A stretch of DNA of 61,461 nt from a virus (Duplodnaviria; Caudoviricetes). Position numbers and translations under genes: made by a program. Shown here piece after piece: positions 322 to 61,461 of this stretch. The notes beneath the pieces were generated by a model, which ran no database searches, was not told where the DNA came from, and was given only the letters and a program-made list of their open reading frames with translations. The stretch covers positions 1 to 61,461 of IMG/VR virus record IMGVR_UViG_3300025759_000099; one strand, given 5' to 3'. Each line of letters starts with the position of its first letter. Position 1 is the first letter of the stretch.

Positions 322-607
322 GAAAAAAGTTAAGCAAACAGTAACAAAGCACTTGAAAGAATACGGTAACGATGTATATTATTTCTTCCCTACTACCGGT
401 GGTTATGGGCGTAGTGGTGTGCCGGATATTGTAGGATGCTACAAGGGTAGATTCTTTGCTATTGAGTGTAAGGCTGCTAAGAATACTACAACTAAACTAC
501 AAGACTTAGAGATAGGTAAGATAAGACAAGCGGGCGCGACTGCTTGGATAGTCAACGAAGACAATGTTGACAGTATCCATACGGCATTGGCTAGTCTTAT
601 TAAATGA
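305..607 (+). CDS. VRR-NUC domain nuclease / Holliday junction resolvase-like
   Basis: TPEKKVK...GGYGRSGVPDIVGC...FFAIECKA...LQ motif; GGAG at 295-298 suggests a start at 302-311 rather than 275. Confidence 0.85.
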   Translation: MAMTPEKKVKQTVTKHLKEYGNDVYYFFPTTGGYGRSGVPDIVGCYKGRFFAIECKAAKNTTTKLQDLEIGKIRQAGATAWIVNEDNVDSIHTALASLIK

Positions 608-835
608 CTAACACCCGACCCAAGCGGGAGTCTTATGACAATGCCTTGGGGTAACCCCAGCGGGCGGTGGGTTGCTTCATGTAAAAACACCCGCAATGTA
701 CGACCATAAAGACTATGCTCCCAAAGTGAAGTCCTCCTAATGGGGCGTACATCGGAGAAGCCACGCTAAGGCTAGACCTTACGGATACGTAGACATCATT
801 GCCTACTCCTTGAGCAACACGTATCTGTAAGGCAC
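606..835 (+). ncRNA. Putative multi-hairpin antisense/regulatory RNA displaying anti-Shine-Dalgarno sequences
   Basis: About 250-nt gap between genes in a gene-dense arm; stems 647-659, 696-707/740-752 and 777-790/819-832 (14 bp, one G-U); internal segments carry TATGCTCC, GTCCTCCTAA and CATCATTGCCTACTCCTT. Confidence 0.6.
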
Positions 836-2835: not shown

Positions 2836-4709
2836 TGGACATAATAACTCTGGACTTTGAAACCTATTACGATAAACAGTTTTCTCTATCTAAGATGACA
2901 ACGGAAGAGTACATACGCAGTCCCGAGTTTCAAGTAATTGGGGTAGGTATAAAAGTAAATGACGACGAAACTGCTTGGTTAAGTGGAGGGTTCAATGCGC
3001 TCAAAACCTATATGCAAGATAACTACGATTGGGAGAACTCTGCGGTTCTGGCTCACAATACTATGTTCGATGGTGCTATTCTCTCTTGGCTTTTTGATAT
3101 ACATCCTAAGCTATGGCTTGATACTTTGTGTATGGCTAGGGCTTTACACGGGGTCGAAGTGTCGGGGTCACTTAAACGAGTTGCTGAAATGTACGCGATT
3201 GGGGAGAAAGGTGATGAGGTACTTAACGCGTTAGGTAAGAAGCTCGAAGACTTCAGTGAAGAAGAACTATCTAGATACGGTGACTACTGCATAAACGATG
3301 TAGAGCTTACCCACAAGTTGTTCAATATATTTATGGGTAAAGGGTTCCCGAAGAAAGAACTTAAAGTTATAGACATGACCTTAAGGATGTTTGTAGACCC
3401 CACACTAGAGTTAAACTTAGATAAGTTAGAGGAACATCTTGACCTACTACAACAGGAGAAGGATACCCTCCTTCAAGAGTGTGGTATCGAAAAAGAAGAA
3501 CTAATGTCTAACAATAAGTTTGCCGAAGCCCTACGCAAGTTGAGGGTAGAACCCCCTATGAAAACCAGTCTACGTACGGGCAAAGAAGCCTACGCTTTCG
3601 CCAAAAGCGATGAGGCGTTTAAAGCCCTACAAGAACATGAAGACCCTAAAGTACAGGCATTAGTTGCCGCACGTATAGGTCTAAAGAGTACACTTGAAGA
3701 AACACGTACTGAAAGGTTTATAGGTATCGGGACTAGAGGTGCGTTACCTGTACCTATTAGGTATTACGCGGCTCACACTGGTAGGTGGGGTGGCTCCGAT
3801 AAGGTTAACCTACAAAACCTACCATCCCGGGGGGATAACGCAAAGGTACTAAAATCCTGCATTACTGCACCTGAAGGATATACCTTAGTGGAGTCCGACT
3901 CAGCACAGATCGAAGCCCGAGTATTAGCGTGGCTTGCCGAAGAGCGGGTACTGGTATCAGCTTTTGAGCGTGGCGAAGATGTATACAAAAAGATGGCGGC
4001 TGCCATCTATGGTAAGAAGGAGGAACTTGTTTCTCCAGAAGAAAGGTTCATCGGTAAAACCACAATACTCGGTGCTGGCTACGGTATGGGTGCGGTAAGG
4101 TTCCGTGAGCAGTTGAGGACGTTCGGGGTCGATGTAAGTGAAGAAGAGTGCAAAAGAATTATAAGAGTGTACAGAGAAACAAATGGTTCTATCACTGCAT
4201 TGTGGAGACAGGCGCAAAGTGCATTATCTAATATGTACCAAGGCGAGAATACGGTAATAGGTAAAAAGGGTGTGTTAGGCGTAGTACACCAAGAAAACGC
4301 AATACGGTTACCATCCGGTTTACTAATGCGGTATGAAGACCTTAAAGCTAAAGAGGGCGAGAAAGGATTACAGTTTTCTTACAAGACCCGTCGAGGTCGA
4401 GTCAACATCTATGGTGGTAAGGTTACCGAGAATGTTTGTCAAGGTATCGCTAGATGCGTTATGGCAGAACAAATGCTACGTATTTCAAAAAGATATAGAG
4501 TCCTACTGACAGTACACGATTCTGTGATATGCTGTGTAAGGGACTCAGAAGTAGACGAAGCATCCGCTTATGTCGCTGAGTGCATGCGTTACGTACCAGA
4601 ATGGGCAGAAGGACTCCCCGTTCGTGGAGACGTGGAAGTAGGTAAAGACTATGGGAACTGTAAAGCATGGGAATCGACACAAAGCCAGCTTGGTCATTCA
4701 GTAGTATAA
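2835..4709 (+). CDS. polA: DNA polymerase family A with 3'-5' exonuclease domain
   Basis: Exo I LDFETY, exo II AHNTMFD, exo III YCINDV; HTGRWGG, NLQNLP, motif A DSAQIEAR, motif B GKTTILGAGYG, motif C TVHDS. Confidence 0.95.
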   Translation: MDIITLDFETYYDKQFSLSKMTTEEYIRSPEFQVIGVGIKVNDDETAWLSGGFNALKTYMQDNYDWENSAVLAHNTMFDGAILSWLFDIHPKLWLDTLCMARALHGVEVSGSLKRVAEMYAIGEKGDEVLNALGKKLEDFSEEELSRYGDYCINDVELTHKLFNIFMGKGFPKKELKVIDMTLRMFVDPTLELNLDKLEEHLDLLQQEKDTLLQECGIEKEELMSNNKFAEALRKLRVEPPMKTSLRTGKEAYAFAKSDEAFKALQEHEDPKVQALVAARIGLKSTLEETRTERFIGIGTRGALPVPIRYYAAHTGRWGGSDKVNLQNLPSRGDNAKVLKSCITAPEGYTLVESDSAQIEARVLAWLAEERVLVSAFERGEDVYKKMAAAIYGKKEELVSPEERFIGKTTILGAGYGMGAVRFREQLRTFGVDVSEEECKRIIRVYRETNGSITALWRQAQSALSNMYQGENTVIGKKGVLGVVHQENAIRLPSGLLMRYEDLKAKEGEKGLQFSYKTRRGRVNIYGGKVTENVCQGIARCVMAEQMLRISKRYRVLLTVHDSVICCVRDSEVDEASAYVAECMRYVPEWAEGLPVRGDVEVGKDYGNCKAWESTQSQLGHSVV

Positions 4710-5353: not shown

Positions 5354-5867
5354 TAAACCAAAGCGTAAAAAGTGTAGGGAATGTAAAAACTTGTTCCCTT
5401 TAGCTAACTTCCCAGAAGATAGAGTTATATGCAATATATGTACGCAAGCTAAACGTAAGATAGCAACGTCAAAAGGTTACATCCCCTATATAAAAAGGGT
5501 GTACTCTCAAATGAAGTATACGCATACAAATAGGAAAAGTAACAAAGGGCATATAAAAGCGGAGTTTAATATAACCGTAGAAGATTTGGTTAAAGTGTGG
5601 GAGAGACAGGAAGGTAGATGTGCACTGTCTGGTATAGTACTTACTCATCATGTTGATGGGAGTGGTAAAAAAGACTTTAACGCTAGTATAGATAGGATAA
5701 TCCCGCACGATCCGTACAATCAAAACAACGTGCAGTTGGTAGCGTATAGAGTAAACATTATGAAACACGAGCTTACAGAAGATTTGTTTTATTGGTGGAT
5801 ACGAACTATCCACGATAATATGAAATTTAGAGTGGAGAACAACGATGCCTTACAAGAACAAAGCTGA
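5340..5867 (+). CDS. HNH-type endonuclease with N-terminal Zn finger (possible homing endonuclease)
   Basis: CxxC...CxxC; QEGRCALSG...SIDRI...YNQNNVQLV...VN. Confidence 0.7.
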   Translation: MVGDNKPKRKKCRECKNLFPLANFPEDRVICNICTQAKRKIATSKGYIPYIKRVYSQMKYTHTNRKSNKGHIKAEFNITVEDLVKVWERQEGRCALSGIVLTHHVDGSGKKDFNASIDRIIPHDPYNQNNVQLVAYRVNIMKHELTEDLFYWWIRTIHDNMKFRVENNDALQEQS

Positions 5868-55777: not shown

Positions 55778-55955
55778 GGATTTTAGAGCATGGCTACGCT
55801 GGGCAATGCAAAGCCCACTACGCAAAGAGACAATGCTGTCACTACTAGACCAATGGGAGGAACAGGAACAACTACGCCAACAGCAACCAATACAGGAATT
55901 CAACACTGACTTTAACAAAGTACGCAACGCATTAGAAAACGGAGAGAAACCATGA
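55758..55955 (+). CDS. Hypothetical protein
   Basis: AGGAG RBS. Confidence 0.65.
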   Translation: MMKMANEDFRAWLRWAMQSPLRKETMLSLLDQWEEQEQLRQQQPIQEFNTDFNKVRNALENGEKP

Positions 55956-56428
55956 ATAAACAAAACATAATCTGCGACCTTGACGGTACGCTGGCTGACC
56001 TGACTCACAGGTTACACCACATTAAAGGTGACAAGAAAGACTGGGACGCGTTCCATGCGGAATGTGTAAATGACAAGCCCCACGATGATGTCATCGAGAT
56101 TGTGGATACCTTTCGGCTGGGGAGCTGCGGGTGTGCTTACCCAAGCAAAGACCTGTACATACTGTCTGGGCGTAACGAGGCGGTGCGTGATGAAACCGTA
56201 CGGTGGCTGGAAGAACACGTTTCTGGTGTGGAGGATTGGGATATACAACTGCGTATGCGCAAAGCAAACGACCGCAGACCTGACACCGAAGTAAAGCGGG
56301 ATATGGTACGCGAACTTGGATTGACTCCTGATAACACGTTATGCGTGTTTGATGACCGCCAGTGTGTAGTGGACATGTGGCGTGAGATGGGGTTCCGCTG
56401 TCTGCAAGTACAGGCATGGAGTGAGTGA
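55952..56428 (+). CDS. HAD-family phosphatase (T4 PseT 3'-phosphatase-like)
   Basis: CDLDGTL, LSGR, MRKANDRRPD..VK, FDDR...VDMWR. Confidence 0.85.
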   Translation: MNKQNIICDLDGTLADLTHRLHHIKGDKKDWDAFHAECVNDKPHDDVIEIVDTFRLGSCGCAYPSKDLYILSGRNEAVRDETVRWLEEHVSGVEDWDIQLRMRKANDRRPDTEVKRDMVRELGLTPDNTLCVFDDRQCVVDMWREMGFRCLQVQAWSE

Positions 56429-56562
56429 TGGAATATAGCCGCGAAGAATTGGAAGCTATGCTTGAAATGGTACGGCAGAAGATCGCTGACCAAGGATACA
56501 TAGTGGACGATAGACTGCTCGAAAAAGAGCGCAACATTAAACAACTGATAGATAAACTTTAA
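56428..56562 (+). CDS. Small hypothetical protein (44 aa, not in ORF track)
   Basis: GGAG RBS, TGATG overlap; MEYSREELEAML... Confidence 0.6.
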   Translation: MEYSREELEAMLEMVRQKIADQGYIVDDRLLEKERNIKQLIDKL

Positions 56563-56578
56563 ACAACGGAGAAAAACC

Positions 56579-57526
56579 ATGAACAACGCAATGCAAACAA
56601 ATGTTACGGAAACACATAACAAACCAACACCAACTGCGCCTACTGCGCCTGACATAAAACCACTGGGAGACTACGGTGTGATGCTGGAGGTACACGTATC
56701 ACTACCGGAGTTTAAGAAACAAGACAAGCGGGCAAGTAAGCAGGTGGCGCAGGATAACAACGCCAACGCCAAACAGGTGGGTGTAATCAAGACACTGCTG
56801 GACATGCCGGAACTCAAAACACTGAAAGGACTTAAAAGCGAGATATACGCGGTGCGCGGTGACTTTGGTACGCCGATGGGGGTGAATCAATACTTTATAC
56901 CCAACACTCGCATCATCGACTGTAAGAACGTGTTAGAGCAACTACTTAACGAATTTAACGGGACAGGCAAGCAATCCTTTATCAACGCGTATCCCGCTGG
57001 GGTGACCAGAGCGCAACTCAATGCTGAAGGGCTTGGCTACATGTTCGACGAATCACTGTACCCATCGGTAGATAGTCTGTACTCAAAAATCAATGCGAGT
57101 GCGTCGTGGAATCAACTACCGTCAACTGGGGTTATGTCTGAGATACACAAACAGGCGCAGGAGACCTTGAGAGAGGAGTTTGCACATAACGCGAACAAAG
57201 CCCAAGAGACCCTGATGAACGGGGTATGGGAGCGACTACGTACCCCCCTACTCAATATGTCTAAGCGGCTGGACTACGGGGACGATGGGAAACCAAAAGA
57301 CGGTGGCTTTAAAGGTACGCTGGTGAACAACGTGCTAGAGATTGTCGACCTGATGAAGCACTGCAATGTCGGAAACGACCCGCGTATGGAACAGGTACGC
57401 ATTGACCTGCGTAATGCACTGACTGGGGTAACCTACGACAGTCTCAAGAACAGCGACGGGATGCGACGCAAAACGAAAGCCGAGGTGGATAAGATCATAG
57501 ACAACTTGCCGTCACTGGGATGGTAA
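56579..57526 (+). CDS. DUF3150-like helical protein
   Basis: KKQDKRAS..VA...KTLL...F...YP...G.MFD...YP; typical neighbour of AAA/VWA genes. Confidence 0.55.
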   Translation: MNNAMQTNVTETHNKPTPTAPTAPDIKPLGDYGVMLEVHVSLPEFKKQDKRASKQVAQDNNANAKQVGVIKTLLDMPELKTLKGLKSEIYAVRGDFGTPMGVNQYFIPNTRIIDCKNVLEQLLNEFNGTGKQSFINAYPAGVTRAQLNAEGLGYMFDESLYPSVDSLYSKINASASWNQLPSTGVMSEIHKQAQETLREEFAHNANKAQETLMNGVWERLRTPLLNMSKRLDYGDDGKPKDGGFKGTLVNNVLEIVDLMKHCNVGNDPRMEQVRIDLRNALTGVTYDSLKNSDGMRRKTKAEVDKIIDNLPSLGW

Positions 57527-57535
57527 CAGAGCAAA

Positions 57536-57557
57536 TACCAAAAGCCGGCTTTTGGTA
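57536..57557. repeat. Perfect 22-bp palindrome TACCAAAAGCCGGCTTTTGGTA
   Basis: Self-reverse-complementary, intergenic. Confidence 0.9.
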
Positions 57558-57590
57558 ACGATTTCATGGAGCACAGGGACGTGCGTTACA

Positions 57591-57620
57591 TTGACTTAAA
57601 CAAACAAACTGCACTATAAT
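57591..57620 (+). promoter_or_regulatory. sigma70 promoter TTGACT-18-TATAAT upstream of the AAA/VWA genes
   Basis: Near-consensus hexamers. Confidence 0.65.
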
Positions 57621-57672
57621 ATGTATAACTTAATGAAACATCATATAACTAAATGTCTTAGGAGGACACGTT

Positions 57673-58758
57673 ATGACAACTGCAACATCAATGTATGCAC
57701 TTAACCACAATCAGATAGCACAACTAATCGCAACCGTAGGTAGGGACAACTGCGTGCTGGTGCAAGGTGAGACGGGTACAGGTAAAACGAGTATCCAGAA
57801 AATACTAGAGGTTAAATTCCCCAACCATATCTTGGTTTACTTTGATGGTACGACCAAGGATATGGGTGACCTGATGGTGCCGATGTTCCATACGATTGGT
57901 GACGATGGCGTGGTGCGCTACGCGACCAACGAGGAACTGGGACTGCACTTAGATAAACCCGTTATAGTAATGATAGACGAGTTTGGTAAATGTCTGCCAA
58001 CTGTTAAGAACGCATTGACCAGACTTATACTGGAACGTCAGATGGGTGCAAAAAAACTGCATGAGGAATCCTTGCTTTGGGCTACTACTAACTTACAAGC
58101 CGAGGGACTGGGTGACATGCTACCGGCACACGTACGTAATCGCATAACAACTGTGGAGATGCGTAAACCTGATGCTACCGAGTGGATAGAATGGGGTATC
58201 AATAACGACATTGACCCGATGATTTTAGCGTGGACTAAGGATACTCCCCAACTGTTCCACAGTTTCAAGGATTGTAAGCCGGAAGAAAATCCATACATTA
58301 ACCATCCACAGGCACAGCGTGCGTCGTTTGTATCCCCTCGTTCACTTGAGAAGGCGAGTAATATTCTCAAACAACGTGACCAGATAGACACGACTACACT
58401 GACCGCATCATTAATAGGTACGATAGGTGAACGTGGTGCACTAGACCTGATGGCATACGTAGCACTGGGTGACCAACTACCATCACTTGACTCTATCAAG
58501 AACGACCCGATGGGTGCCAAGGTTCCAACTGCCGCTGGTGCGGTGTGTATGGTGGTATATCGTTCACTTGCGACTATCGAGCGTAGCTGGATTAAACAGT
58601 GGATGACTTACCTAAACAGGTTGAACAAGGAAGCACAGGGCTTGTTTGTCAACGGTGCGCGTGCCAAGGGCTATAGCAAGCAGGATGTAGTAACACAGTC
58701 TAAGGAGTTTCAGGACTGGTGCTTGGCTAATAACTTTTTGTTTAGCGCAGATAAATAA
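57673..58758 (+). CDS. MoxR-like AAA+ ATPase
   Basis: GETGTGKT, VMIDEFGK, ATTN, RNR, SPRS. Confidence 0.85.
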   Translation: MTTATSMYALNHNQIAQLIATVGRDNCVLVQGETGTGKTSIQKILEVKFPNHILVYFDGTTKDMGDLMVPMFHTIGDDGVVRYATNEELGLHLDKPVIVMIDEFGKCLPTVKNALTRLILERQMGAKKLHEESLLWATTNLQAEGLGDMLPAHVRNRITTVEMRKPDATEWIEWGINNDIDPMILAWTKDTPQLFHSFKDCKPEENPYINHPQAQRASFVSPRSLEKASNILKQRDQIDTTTLTASLIGTIGERGALDLMAYVALGDQLPSLDSIKNDPMGAKVPTAAGAVCMVVYRSLATIERSWIKQWMTYLNRLNKEAQGLFVNGARAKGYSKQDVVTQSKEFQDWCLANNFLFSADK

Positions 58759-58779
58759 CAACTAACAGGAGTAGGAAAC

Positions 58780-59988
58780 ATGTTAGCAATAAATTTAGAC
58801 CTAACAGCCGAACAACGGCTACATAAATCTGTTGTGAGTATTATGTCCAACCCCCGCTACGTAGCGATGGCGGGACTGCTTATGATGGGTAAACGAACTA
58901 TCGACGAGACAACACCAACCGCGTGTACCAATGGACGCGATGAGGTGTACGGACGGGCGTTTGTAGATTCACTTACTGATGCCGAACTACGATTTGTGGT
59001 ACTGCATGAGTGTAAACATAAGATGTATCGCCATTTGATAACATGGAAACACTTGCATGACAAAGACCACAGGTGTGCAAATATGGCGTGTGACTACGTG
59101 ATTAACCTAGAGATTGAGGCTGAGAATCCAGATGGGTTTGCCACTATGCCACTAGATGAGAACGGTAAACGTATTGGGCTATTAGACCATAGGTTCCGAA
59201 ACATGAACTCGCAAGAGGTATTCAACATCATCTATGAGGAGCAGGAACAAGGAGGTGGTGCAGGTGAGGGTGAGGGTGAGGGTGAGACCCTAGACTCGCA
59301 TGACTGGGATGGAGCGCAGGAGATGTCTGACGGTGAGAAACGTCAACTGGAACAAGAGATAGACCAAGCAATACGCCAAGGTGCGTTGACCGCTGGCAAG
59401 ATGGGCGCGGATACACCACGGGGGTTTGAGCAACTACTACAACCACAGATAGATTGGCGTGAGGTGATGCGTGAGTTTGTTAGCACAACGTGTACAGGTA
59501 AGGACTATAGCACTTACAACCGACCCAACCGACGATTCATGTCTGCGGGAATGTACATGCCGAGTGCAGTGAGTGAACAGGTAGGTGAACTTGTAGTAGC
59601 TATCGATACAAGCGGTAGCATAGGCGATACCGAACTGGCTGTGTTCCTTAGCGAACTGAAATCTATCTGCGATACGGTGAACCCAAGCGGTGTACGACTA
59701 CTGTACTGGGGACATGAGGTAGTAGGTGATGAGAAGTATGGGGATATGGATACCCCGATAGACCAACTCGTTACGTCAACTAAACCCCAAGGTGGAGGTG
59801 GTACGGATGTGAACTGTGTATGCAACTACATACGCGAGGAGAACATCAATGCCGAAGCTGTTGTGGTGTTGACTGATGGGTATCTTGCAGGTGACTGGGG
59901 TACATGGACGCAACCCCTGTTGTGGTGCATATTGAATAATGCGAGCGCCAACCCTAGTGTTGGTAAATACGTTAACGTAACTTTATAG
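58780..59988 (+). CDS. Metallopeptidase-like (DUF2201) plus VWA domain protein
   Basis: TACTNG, LHECKH, NMACDYVIN, acidic linker, MIDAS DTSGS...GGGT...LTDG. Confidence 0.85.
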   Translation: MLAINLDLTAEQRLHKSVVSIMSNPRYVAMAGLLMMGKRTIDETTPTACTNGRDEVYGRAFVDSLTDAELRFVVLHECKHKMYRHLITWKHLHDKDHRCANMACDYVINLEIEAENPDGFATMPLDENGKRIGLLDHRFRNMNSQEVFNIIYEEQEQGGGAGEGEGEGETLDSHDWDGAQEMSDGEKRQLEQEIDQAIRQGALTAGKMGADTPRGFEQLLQPQIDWREVMREFVSTTCTGKDYSTYNRPNRRFMSAGMYMPSAVSEQVGELVVAIDTSGSIGDTELAVFLSELKSICDTVNPSGVRLLYWGHEVVGDEKYGDMDTPIDQLVTSTKPQGGGGTDVNCVCNYIREENINAEAVVVLTDGYLAGDWGTWTQPLLWCILNNASANPSVGKYVNVTL

Positions 59989-59995
59989 GAGAATA

Positions 59996-60970
59996 ATGAT
60001 GAGCATAAATAGCTATTTAATAAAAGAAGTAAGAGAGGTAGACCATACATACTCAACTGACTTTACGGCAGTGATAACTGGTATCAAAAAACGCCTGAAA
60101 CATCGAGTTTCGTTTGATGTATTAAAGGTAAATCACGATAACTGTGTGACCAAGGTAGGTGTACGTGTACCTAACTCTCTGTACTATACTTGTTTCATAG
60201 GAGAGCTAGGTACAGACATGAACTTTGAAACGGTATTCGGGATTAAGTCGTTCCGAATTCATAAGGATAGGTACAACTACGACTGGGGTGTTGAGTGGTC
60301 AAAGGCATCTATCACCAGAAAAATACCGCGTGCGGTATCAATAGCAAGTAACTTAGAACCCTTATACGACAACGGGGTAGTACACCAAGCTGTGGTCGAT
60401 ATGCGGAACACCGCAGAGGAAGCGTTGACTAAATCTGAAAACGAATACTCAAGATTAGATGTTACGCTTGTTGAGGCACTAACATCATACAAATTGAGGA
60501 CTGAAACGACGGCGCTTGTAAAGCAATTTATCGAATCATCCAAAGCGGGGCAAGTAGCAAGCGTAGACTCTAACAACCCTGTGCTACAGATGTATGATGA
60601 ATACTGCACGAAGAAGGAAGAACTACAAGAAGAACTAACGCACCTAGGTGAACGTGTTATTGTACATGTAATAAAACTTTTCAATCGTGAAGATATATTC
60701 ATGCGACTGGAGGGGAGGCAAGCACTACACATGCAAATGCAGGGGATGCAAGCACGACTACCTTCTGTGTCTACCCTACCCCAAAGCGTGCAGACTTTAG
60801 TACACACCGTAAACCTTATGGCTATAGGGAACGGATACAGCACTACGAAAACGTGTAGTGTAGGAGTGATGGACAATGCGGAACATAGAATAGTGGAAGA
60901 CCACTACGTAGTATTCTTACCGGTGGAAGAAGCAGAGGGCTTGAGGGAGATACTACATGTCCCTGAATAG
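59996..60970 (+). CDS. Hypothetical protein
   Basis: 324-aa ORF, AGGAG RBS. Confidence 0.75.
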   Translation: MMSINSYLIKEVREVDHTYSTDFTAVITGIKKRLKHRVSFDVLKVNHDNCVTKVGVRVPNSLYYTCFIGELGTDMNFETVFGIKSFRIHKDRYNYDWGVEWSKASITRKIPRAVSIASNLEPLYDNGVVHQAVVDMRNTAEEALTKSENEYSRLDVTLVEALTSYKLRTETTALVKQFIESSKAGQVASVDSNNPVLQMYDEYCTKKEELQEELTHLGERVIVHVIKLFNREDIFMRLEGRQALHMQMQGMQARLPSVSTLPQSVQTLVHTVNLMAIGNGYSTTKTCSVGVMDNAEHRIVEDHYVVFLPVEEAEGLREILHVPE

Positions 60971-61214
60971 AGTGTACCGTGTGGAGTTTACAGGTAGACA
61001 AGCTAAGGTAGATAAGTTTGATACATTAGATACTACGCCGGAACTGGATGGTGAATACCACATCGACGACCTACCTGACTGGATGCAGAAACGCATAGCG
61101 GTATTATCGTTTATGTCATACGAGCCGCCTACTGAGTACATAGAGAATGTAGGTAGGCGGATAGAGAAAAATGTTTATTGGGTTCTTTACCCAGAGGAGA
61201 ATGATGGAAATTAA
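60957..61214 (+). CDS. Conserved hypothetical protein
   Basis: DDLPDWMQKRIAVL...VGRRI...YWV. Confidence 0.75.
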   Translation: MSLNRVYRVEFTGRQAKVDKFDTLDTTPELDGEYHIDDLPDWMQKRIAVLSFMSYEPPTEYIENVGRRIEKNVYWVLYPEENDGN

Positions 61215-61461
61215 CGGGTACGAGTATCAGATAATACCTAAGGCTGACTTGCGGAAGGCTGACTTGCGGAGGGCTGACTTGCAGGAGGCTGACTTGCGGA
61301 GGGCTGACTTGCAGGAGGCTGACTTGCGGAAGGCTGACTTGCGGAAGGCTGACTTGTGGGGGGCTTACTTGCGGAAGGCTAACTTGTATGGGGCTGACTT
61401 GCAGGAGGCTAACTTGCAGGGGGCTAACTTGCGGGGGGCTGACTTGCGGGGGGCTGACTTG
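61201..61461 (+). CDS. Pentapeptide-repeat protein, N-terminal part (runs off the contig end)
   Basis: AGGAG RBS; MMEINGYEYQIIPK then A[DNY]Lxx repeats, open to the end. Confidence 0.85.
   Translation, partial: MMEINGYEYQIIPKADLRKADLRRADLQEADLRRADLQEADLRKADLRKADLWGAYLRKANLYGADLQEANLQGANLRGADLRGADL
61243..61461 (+). repeat. 15-bp tandem repeat, ~14.6 units
   Basis: GCT-NAC-TTG-NNN-NNG. Confidence 0.95.

Follow-up and report, generated by a model that had tools for sequence, protein, structure and literature searches.

A conserved pseudoknotted RNA domain in an intergenic gap of phage genomes

C4 of phages P1 and P7 and CI of phage P4 are small, simple phage antisense RNAs that are defined by the pairing with their targets. 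The leader of T4 gene 32 represents a pseudoknot-type translational operator. HK022 put RNA is an RNA-based processive antiterminator, with put sites near both early promoters. Self-cleaving ribozymes carried by phages typically occur without a consistent neighbouring gene. Here we describe an RNA in the virus record IMGVR_UViG_3300025759_000099 (Caudoviricetes) of IMG/VR, the 61,461 bp of which were analyzed in full (the window; CheckV completeness estimate: 98%). The original prediction read positions 606–835 as a multi-arm RNA, with arms that complement the ribosome-binding sites (RBSs) of an AAA ATPase gene, a VWA-peptidase gene and open reading frame (ORF) 997, and it proposed that this one RNA silences several early genes. 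We find that positions 619–834 (+) are a genuine, strongly conserved pseudoknotted RNA domain of a widespread phage family. Selection acts on its fold and on about 20 invariant unpaired bases rather than on target-specific arms.

The closest described motif is Proteo-phage-1 (RF03044), which Rfam classes as a small RNA (sRNA) gene and lists as a candidate motif of unknown function. At the gathering threshold, Rfam returned no match in the whole window and none in four Pseudomonas provirus loci. At relaxed threshold, the comparison with Rfam that had been suggested for this locus gave one meaningful match: the full RF03044 model (positions 1–82) aligned to 614–698 of the window with 26.1 bits (E = 0.0084 in a 341-nt search). 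Relatives of the window RNA scored 40.3 (L009), 33.4 (L356) and 27.9 bits (phage PAJU2), and none of the members tested reached the gathering cut-off of 42 bits. Judged by these alignments, the window RNA is a divergent, 3'-extended relative of RF03044. Both contain a P1 hairpin that has a G-rich internal loop, and next to it a second hairpin with a loop that pairs to a strand 3' of an A-rich linker. Proteo-phage-1 is found in phages of Proteobacteria, as are relatives of the window RNA. They differ in their loop sequences and in length, since the Rfam model ends after the pseudoknot whereas the window family adds about 130 nt, in which P3 and P4 covary and P5 is variable. What Rfam models as Proteo-phage-1 (82 nt) seems to be the 5' portion of a far larger, strongly covarying RNA of about 115–220 nt. 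The name Proteo-phage-1 did not occur in the papers searched or in the main text of the 2017 survey PMC5737381, the supplements of which may describe the motif. The parts seen of bioRxiv 10.64898/2026.09.22.753630 do not mention the window RNA, and broader searches at the level of listings and abstracts returned nothing relevant. In the relative L009, a sub-threshold match to Rfam Pseudomon-1/ErsA was also recorded (5440–5542, − strand; 29.1 bits against a cut-off of 50, E = 0.093), which is probably due to chance.

With C4 and CI, the window RNA has in common that it is a phage RNA from the same operon as its proposed target, and that the proposed action is RBS masking, here by a 10-nt match over the Shine–Dalgarno (SD) region of the AAA gene. 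The differences are that this pairing is missing in most relatives, that the fold is large and pseudoknotted, and that the RNA is present in phages that lack the proposed targets. A pseudoknotted fold with so many invariant unpaired bases exceeds the needs of a simple base-pairing antisense RNA. Like the gene 32 leader of T4, the window RNA is a structured, pseudoknot-bearing segment of a phage early transcript, and an A/U-rich spacer separates it from the next RBS. Unlike in T4, a cognate autoregulated protein is not identifiable, the downstream genes are non-homologous, and the two RNAs share no similarity in sequence or model.

Covariation and architecture of the RNA

To collect relatives of the RNA we relied on the flanking proteins, and the gap was then compared by nhmmer. 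In 22 loci the nucleotide sequence of the gap is conserved, despite an identity of just 55–75% between the flanking proteins. On the 22 distinct sequences, the pairs of P2, the pseudoknot, P3 and P4 are formed in 93.5% of the cells, compared to 80.1% after shuffling (with 0 of 500 shuffles as high as the real alignment), and compensatory changes on both sides occur at 20 of the 27 pairs. Sliding the 3' partners by one to three columns as a control lowered pairing to 28.9–47.2%. The two helices of the pseudoknot region are paired in 97.7% and 97.4% of the cells with both-side changes in 6 of 11 pairs; P3a and P3b show compensatory changes in all 12 pairs; and P4 is 100% paired, with both-side changes in two of four pairs. 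Hence, the check on conservation and covariation in related loci came out in favor of the fold.

A covariance model of 129 positions and 23 pairs (R1) gave 43 matches in 100 sources, every one of them oriented like the neighbouring genes. In the window R1 matches a single copy (650–776, 103.4 bits), and 30 further loci contained no match. Among 32 distinct R1 matches, 92.6% of the cells pair and 19 of 23 pairs show compensatory changes, values that are biased towards structure because the alignment was fitted to the model. The paired cells of 80 distinct sequences contain 136 G-U but only 6 A-C combinations. This imbalance identifies the + strand transcript as the selected molecule, despite the lower folding z-score of the − strand (z = −3.88). 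The minimum free energy (MFE) fold of the + strand has z = −2.23, with 3 of 200 shuffles equally good. The prediction of a multi-arm phage RNA on the + strand of the gap is borne out by this G-U excess together with the covariation.

The copy in the window consists of about 215 nt and contains P1, an H-type pseudoknot, a three-part P3 arm, P4 and a variable P5. According to the MFE fold, the P1 hairpin (619–650) comprises an outer helix (619–624/645–650), an inner hairpin (630–632/637–639) and a G-rich internal loop (625–629). A hairpin at this position just 5' of the pseudoknot, with a sequence that differs by lineage, folds with z < −1 in 50 of 70 distinct sequences. The pseudoknot (654–694) is formed by P2 (654–657/669–672) and by pairing of the P2 loop (660–664, plus 667–668) with 690–694 (plus 687–688), and includes an A-rich linker (683–689). 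The P3 arm (696–752) is built from P3a (696–702/746–752), P3b (704–707/740–743) and the apical P3c hairpin (711–733). The P3c insert ranges from 15 to 67 nt across well-aligned family members. The word GTCCTCCTAA (731–740) covers the 3' internal loop of P3 (734–739), which is CU-rich and resembles an anti-SD sequence; residues 731–733 and 740 are paired in the model.

The junction J3/4 (753–758) with an invariant CG leads to the P4 hairpin, and the two extend over 753–776. P4 itself is formed by 759–762 and 770–773, and is followed by TAG-N. Its 7-nt loop (763–769) has the consensus N-C-G-N-N-A-N and may be read as GNRA-like. The P5 hairpin (777–834) includes the 14-bp stem that the original prediction had pointed out among several hairpins in the gap (777–790/819–832). 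This stem is present, with one G-U pair. The apex of P5 (791–818) contains CCTACTCCT at 802–810, and the stem is followed by CA. A 6-bp closing helix of varied sequence was found at the expected base of P5 in 40 of 83 distinct sequences, with CA next in 32 of these 40. The length of P5 is very variable across the family, and the sequence of its apex is common only to the window and L009. The P5 apex and the P3c hairpin are the most variable regions of the family.

Throughout the family, C and U predominate in the 3' internal loop of P3. Of 83 distinct sequences, 60 contain TCC among the 12 nt that precede P3b; CTCC occurs in 25 and TTCC in 20. The 3' end of 16S rRNA has a CCUCC core, and several P3 loops read alike. 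Of the anti-SD words that the arms were said to carry, the one in the P3 loop is therefore a family feature, while those in the P5 apex and P3c fall in variable regions. In two relatives (L012 376–503 and L279 4047–4174, each with 50 nt upstream), the P3 loop can form a 10-bp helix, G-U pairs included, with the G-rich 5' strand of P1. This helix would compete with P1, which suggests alternative conformations. The P3 loop may serve as a tertiary or alternative pairing partner inside the RNA, as a generic SD-binding surface, or as both.

Complementarity to ribosome-binding sites

The complementary words on which the silencing proposal was based are present as described. GTCCTCCTAA is the exact complement of 57658–57667, the RBS located 6–15 nt before the ATG (57673) of the AAA (AAA_5) gene (RBS and start codon: 57658–57675, +). 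CCTACTCCT is the exact complement of 58767–58775, the RBS of the DUF2201 metallopeptidase/VWA gene (58767–58782 with the start codon, +), and TATGCTCC (714–721) is that of 985–992, the RBS of ORF 997. Matches of 8 nt to late genes, of which the same prediction had warned, were found as well.

To judge these words we used 89 RBS windows derived from heuristic gene calls made in this analysis; the start codons of the relatives were likewise called heuristically. As a null, we took 4900 natural 223-nt windows of the same genome with antisense self-matches masked. An exact 10-mer complement to some RBS occurs in 24.8% of these windows, 9-mers to at least two genes in 29.3%, and a 10-mer plus 9-mers to at least two genes in 14.9%. 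The RNA matches 11 genes by 8-mers, and at least this number was found in 4.3% of the natural windows; the many 8-mer matches are due to CTCC words. Whole-element duplex energies rank the AAA RBS 20th, the VWA RBS 39th and the ORF 997 RBS 76th of 89, but this duplexfold ranking permits unrealistically long loops, and exact-word and arm-wise tests were used instead. In the arm-wise test, we counted among 300 shuffled arms those with a best target at least as good as that of the real arm. For the P3 loop arm, the AAA RBS ranks first of 89 (−17.7 kcal/mol), and 10 of 300 shuffled arms are as good. For the P5 apex arm, the VWA RBS ranks third with 156 of 300 shuffled arms as good, and for the P3c arm, the ORF 997 RBS ranks second with 91 of 300. 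When the AAA RBS is named in advance, 40 of 6093 same-genome windows match it equally well (p = 0.0067). Pairing with the AAA RBS in the window is thus modestly unusual (p about 0.007–0.03), whereas the VWA and ORF 997 pairings are at chance.

A loop-to-downstream pseudoknot could also form, as the original prediction pointed out, if the apical loop of P5 (CATCAT and CTCCTT, 794–811) paired with the SD and the double ATG of the following ORF (847–861). Of this pairing, the nearest relative, L009, retains the 4-nt SD core only.

Among the relatives, 21 other genomes contain both the RNA and an AAA start, and 22 contain the RNA and a VWA start. Near-duplicates were kept in these sets (L338 and G019 with a shared translation initiation region; L341 and L279 with a shared VWA translation initiation region). 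The strongest case is genome G004, in which a different 12-nt word, GTTCTCCAATTG, complements the RBS of its own AAA gene from −14 to −3 relative to the ATG. This word resides in the same P3 internal loop and register as that of the window, and the match is equalled by 0 of 1461 same-genome windows. The AAA RBS of G004 is contained in L220/L132 and the P3 loop in L039 (4005–4124), where the same loop also has a 7-bp complement to GGAGAA immediately 5' of its own P1. When close relatives of the G004 AAA gene were sought, only four loci came up, none of which supplied an independent pair of RNA and RBS. In G003 and G007, 9-nt matches to the AAA RBS are found outside this loop of the RNA (p = 0.04 and p = 0.057). 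In 17 of the remaining relatives the AAA matches are 5–7 nt long, and 20 of the 21 relatives overall have matches of just 5–9 nt.

Combined by Fisher's method with the same-genome null, the AAA matches of the 21 relatives give p = 0.18, or p = 0.66 without G004; the corresponding value for VWA is p = 0.20. A comparison of own with other genomes found AAA matches of at least 9 nt in 4 of 17 own but only 8 of 272 cross pairs (permutation p = 0.003). This signal weakened under the same-genome null and with five added genomes, and the permutation leaves differences in word usage between genomes uncontrolled. The P5-apex word of the window and its match to VWA persist in L009 even though the P5 stems have diverged. 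Since the VWA RBS of L009 is nearly identical to that of the window, this match is not independent. In sum, a long match in the same loop is kept in one of the 21 relatives (G004), which falls short of the covariation between seed and target, or the kept pairing, expected of antisense RNAs directed at RBSs.

Genome setting, distribution and expression

Early and replication genes of the window occupy the + strand from about 52 kb to the end of the record and from 1 to 12.7 kb, with structural genes on the − strand in between. An ORF for a pentapeptide-repeat protein (Pfam PF00805, E = 3.4e-24) is split over both record ends (61171–61461 and 1–321). The genome is therefore probably circularly permuted, and this places the AAA gene (57673) about 4.4 kb upstream of the RNA on the same strand. 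The gap itself (608–855) separates a gene for an Hjc-like resolvase (308–607; Pfam Hjc, E = 1.6e-5) from a 45-codon ORF (856–993), and contains no + strand ORF of 30 amino acids or more. The SD (AAGGAG) and ATG-ATG start of this next ORF (847–861, +) are positioned 15–24 nt past P5. A strong SD past the last helix is also seen in relatives. The + strand genes at 55952–60970 code for a polynucleotide-kinase-like protein (PHROG 415), a 315-residue protein without family match, the AAA_5 ATPase, the DUF2201 metallopeptidase/VWA protein and a 324-residue protein without Pfam match. The order AAA, VWA, a spacer of 3–4 kb and RNA recurs in 29 loci, with the AAA gene 3–4.4 kb upstream of the RNA on the same strand. 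ARAGORN detected no tRNA or tmRNA gene in the whole window, and blastn of positions 300–1300 against GenBank phages gave no match. The DNA polymerase of the window is at most 35% identical to those of cultured phages, which indicates that a close cultured relative is absent. The DNA runs that contain the window RNA are labeled freshwater and salt marsh.

When IMG/VR was scanned with a pattern of the pseudoknot, at least 120 contigs of uncultured phages matched; all 80 of the matches listed are matched by R1, and a handful hold the pseudoknot part alone. A GC-rich branch of the family resides in proviruses, and blastn found it in 90 GenBank records of Pseudomonas phages (P. aeruginosa). Phages PAJU2 and YMC11/02/R656 are R1 matches. 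In both, the RNA occupies an unannotated gap of the early left operon upstream of an Erf/RecT-exonuclease module. These two copies (PAJU2, 4084–4257; YMC11/02/R656, 4084–4233) have a GC-rich P4 followed by TTT and a CU-rich tract, and P1 and P5 are apparently missing. In species-representative genomes, six of seven pattern-scan loci are R1 matches, namely in Alkalilimnicola, Endozoicomonas (two), Shimia, Silicibacter and a Lysinibacter metagenome-assembled genome. A pattern match in Dehalococcoidia (L361) was rejected as a member, as R1 did not confirm it.

Clustering of neighbour proteins revealed no protein family that is common to the marine/freshwater, Pseudomonas and other groups. The freshwater/marine group has the Hjc-like gene and DNA polymerase A as neighbours of the RNA, and across the family the genes downstream are non-homologous and without common function. 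In five of five complete Pseudomonas phage or provirus records with the RNA, we found no homologue of AAA or VWA, although the same queries detected homologues in 7 of 10 other records. Conversely, among 43 AAA-anchored loci that extend at least 5.5 kb downstream, the RNA is present in only 4. From these two observations it follows that the conserved function of the family cannot be control of the AAA and VWA genes.

In the part of the gap that precedes the RNA we found no promoter-like site, and in 1–1300 no site that resembles a terminator. The two promoter-like sites in 1–1300 both fall inside the upstream gene, and their number equals the shuffled expectation. Contigs of a close variant from salt-marsh metatranscriptome libraries span the RNA and both neighbours (311–1085, 424–986 and 605–880). 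Such contigs show neither transcript ends nor levels, and the parts that they leave uncovered carry no meaning, but they are compatible with co-transcription of the RNA and its neighbours. Within 614–836 the close variant differs at eight positions, of which seven are unpaired and one (A740G) converts a U-A into a U-G pair. One variant contig (X13 record 1, 311–1085) combines C721T with G985A. These are facing bases of the 714–721/985–992 pairing, so that C-G becomes U-A and complementarity is retained. This is a single event with roughly p = 0.01 when 17 differences across 775 nt are considered. Base 721 is part of the apical loop of P3c, which is hypervariable, and in ORF 856–993 G985A turns a Gly into an Arg codon.

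Possible roles of the RNA

The explanation that we consider best overall, and hold with about as much doubt as confidence, is that of a conserved early-operon RNA domain which acts in cis on downstream genes and not via pairing with the AAA and VWA RBSs. The RNA is placed between cistrons of the early/replication operon, on the same strand as its neighbours. It would be transcribed as part of a polycistronic early mRNA, and as a cis-acting domain it would set the translation or the stability of the genes downstream. The conserved CU-rich internal loop of P3 would engage a G-rich, SD-like partner, either the 5' strand or loop of P1 or an SD. The RNA would work by way of host machinery or its own transcript, and would depend neither on an adjacent phage protein nor on the AAA and VWA RBSs. 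The long match to the AAA RBS in the window phage would then be due to chance or be a lineage-specific add-on. A cis role on downstream translation or stability through the CU-rich loop is the mechanism that we prefer, with only moderate confidence. In favor of this explanation are the covarying fold and its wide distribution, the position in an intergenic gap, the contigs that extend into both neighbours, the TCC-bearing P3 loop and the natural variants, which fall at unpaired positions or keep a pair.

Several observations weigh against this explanation. Nearness to the next SD is expected of any element in a compact phage genome. The P3 loop shows no own-specific signal against the downstream RBS (4.22 for own and 4.32 for other pairs, p = 0.80). 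When the P3 loop is compared with the G-rich P1 region, the values are 5.97 for own and 5.73 for other pairs, which favors P1 as a partner, but the signal is weak and its p-value (p = 0.03) ignores kinship among the sequences; with the P5 region no signal was found (p = 0.72). DNA carry-over is a possible source of the contigs from RNA libraries. Finally, when read from the sequences, the AAA matches of the window and of G004 sit in the same loop and register with three compensatory positions, which a purely cis model leaves unexplained.

This last point belongs to the original idea of a regulator that acts in trans, or in cis over a long range. According to this idea, the P3 loop would pair with the AAA SD 4.4 kb upstream and other arms perhaps with the VWA and ORF 997 RBSs, so that early translation is turned off once the RNA is made. 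The rank of the AAA RBS among P3-loop targets, the G004 word, the permutation over own and other genomes, the recurrent position of AAA upstream of the RNA in 29 loci, the word that L009 keeps in its diverged P5 and the retained complementarity of C721T and G985A all point in this direction. The Fisher combinations, the matches of at most 7 nt in 17 of 21 relatives, the displaced matches of G003 and G007 and the P5-apex and P3c arms that do no better than shuffles point away from it, as do the carriers without AAA and VWA and the scarcity of the RNA at AAA loci. Furthermore, only 6 of the 10 nt of the AAA-matching word are unpaired in the model, and the RBS set as well as the starts of relatives come from heuristic calls. 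A single RNA that silences several early genes is not supported: the pairings with VWA and ORF 997 are at chance, a long AAA pairing is missing in 20 of 21 relatives, and carriers without the targets exist. For AAA, pairing survives as a lineage-specific possibility that we consider unlikely; for VWA or ORF 997, it is unsupported. Quite doubtful as well is a variant of this scheme, in which the rigid pseudoknotted scaffold of the RNA exposes an anti-SD word like that of 16S rRNA, so that the RNA forms a re-programmable translational silencer or timer. In the window phage and in the lineage of G004, the loop would have been adapted (10 and 12 nt) to turn off the AAA–VWA module upstream once transcription arrives at the RNA.

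The complex fold with a pseudoknot, five helices, about 20 invariant unpaired bases and a GNNA-type P4 loop could belong to an undescribed class of riboswitch or self-cleaving ribozyme that gates or processes the early polycistronic transcript. The RNA is sense-oriented and intercistronic, a consistent neighbouring gene is absent, and U-rich sequence follows the last helix in several lineages. On the other hand, Rfam riboswitch and ribozyme families gave no match to the window even at E up to 10, and RNA-library contigs, albeit weak evidence, cross the element without a consistent break. Of what is characteristic of riboswitches, the fold is conserved, but the downstream genes are without shared function, which is unusual for the class, a canonical terminator was not found, and no specific covariation that would sequester an SD was seen. 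This explanation appears quite unlikely to us. We regard as decidedly unlikely a stand-alone structured sRNA that would bind or titrate a host factor such as the ribosome, RNA polymerase, an RNase or an RNA chaperone, for example as a put-like processive antiterminator. The classification of the related RF03044 as an sRNA gene, the occurrence in unrelated phage types with no common phage protein nearby, the location inside long early operons and the PAJU2 record, which has no N-like antiterminator annotated in its left operon, are consistent with such a role. However, the RNA is present in single copy and several kb from the PAJU2 early promoter, unlike put sites, and a promoter or terminator of its own was not found in 1–1300 of the window. 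That the conservation stems from a site in the DNA (for origin, packaging or recombination) or from a gene for a small protein is highly improbable. The location in a replication/recombination module next to a resolvase-like gene and the lower folding z-score of the − strand would fit a DNA site, but the excess of G-U over A-C pairs marks selection on the + strand transcript. Moreover, the helices are kept by compensatory changes, insert lengths vary, and a + strand ORF is absent.

The preferred cis-acting role in early operons can be addressed in cultured phages. Since the RNA is found in the temperate P. aeruginosa phages PAJU2 and YMC11/02/R656, its function is directly testable there. For annotation, the RNA accounts for a conserved "empty" gap in many phage genomes. 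A complex RNA with a conserved anti-SD-like loop and no protein partner is a good candidate for a new class of regulatory or catalytic RNA in phage early expression.

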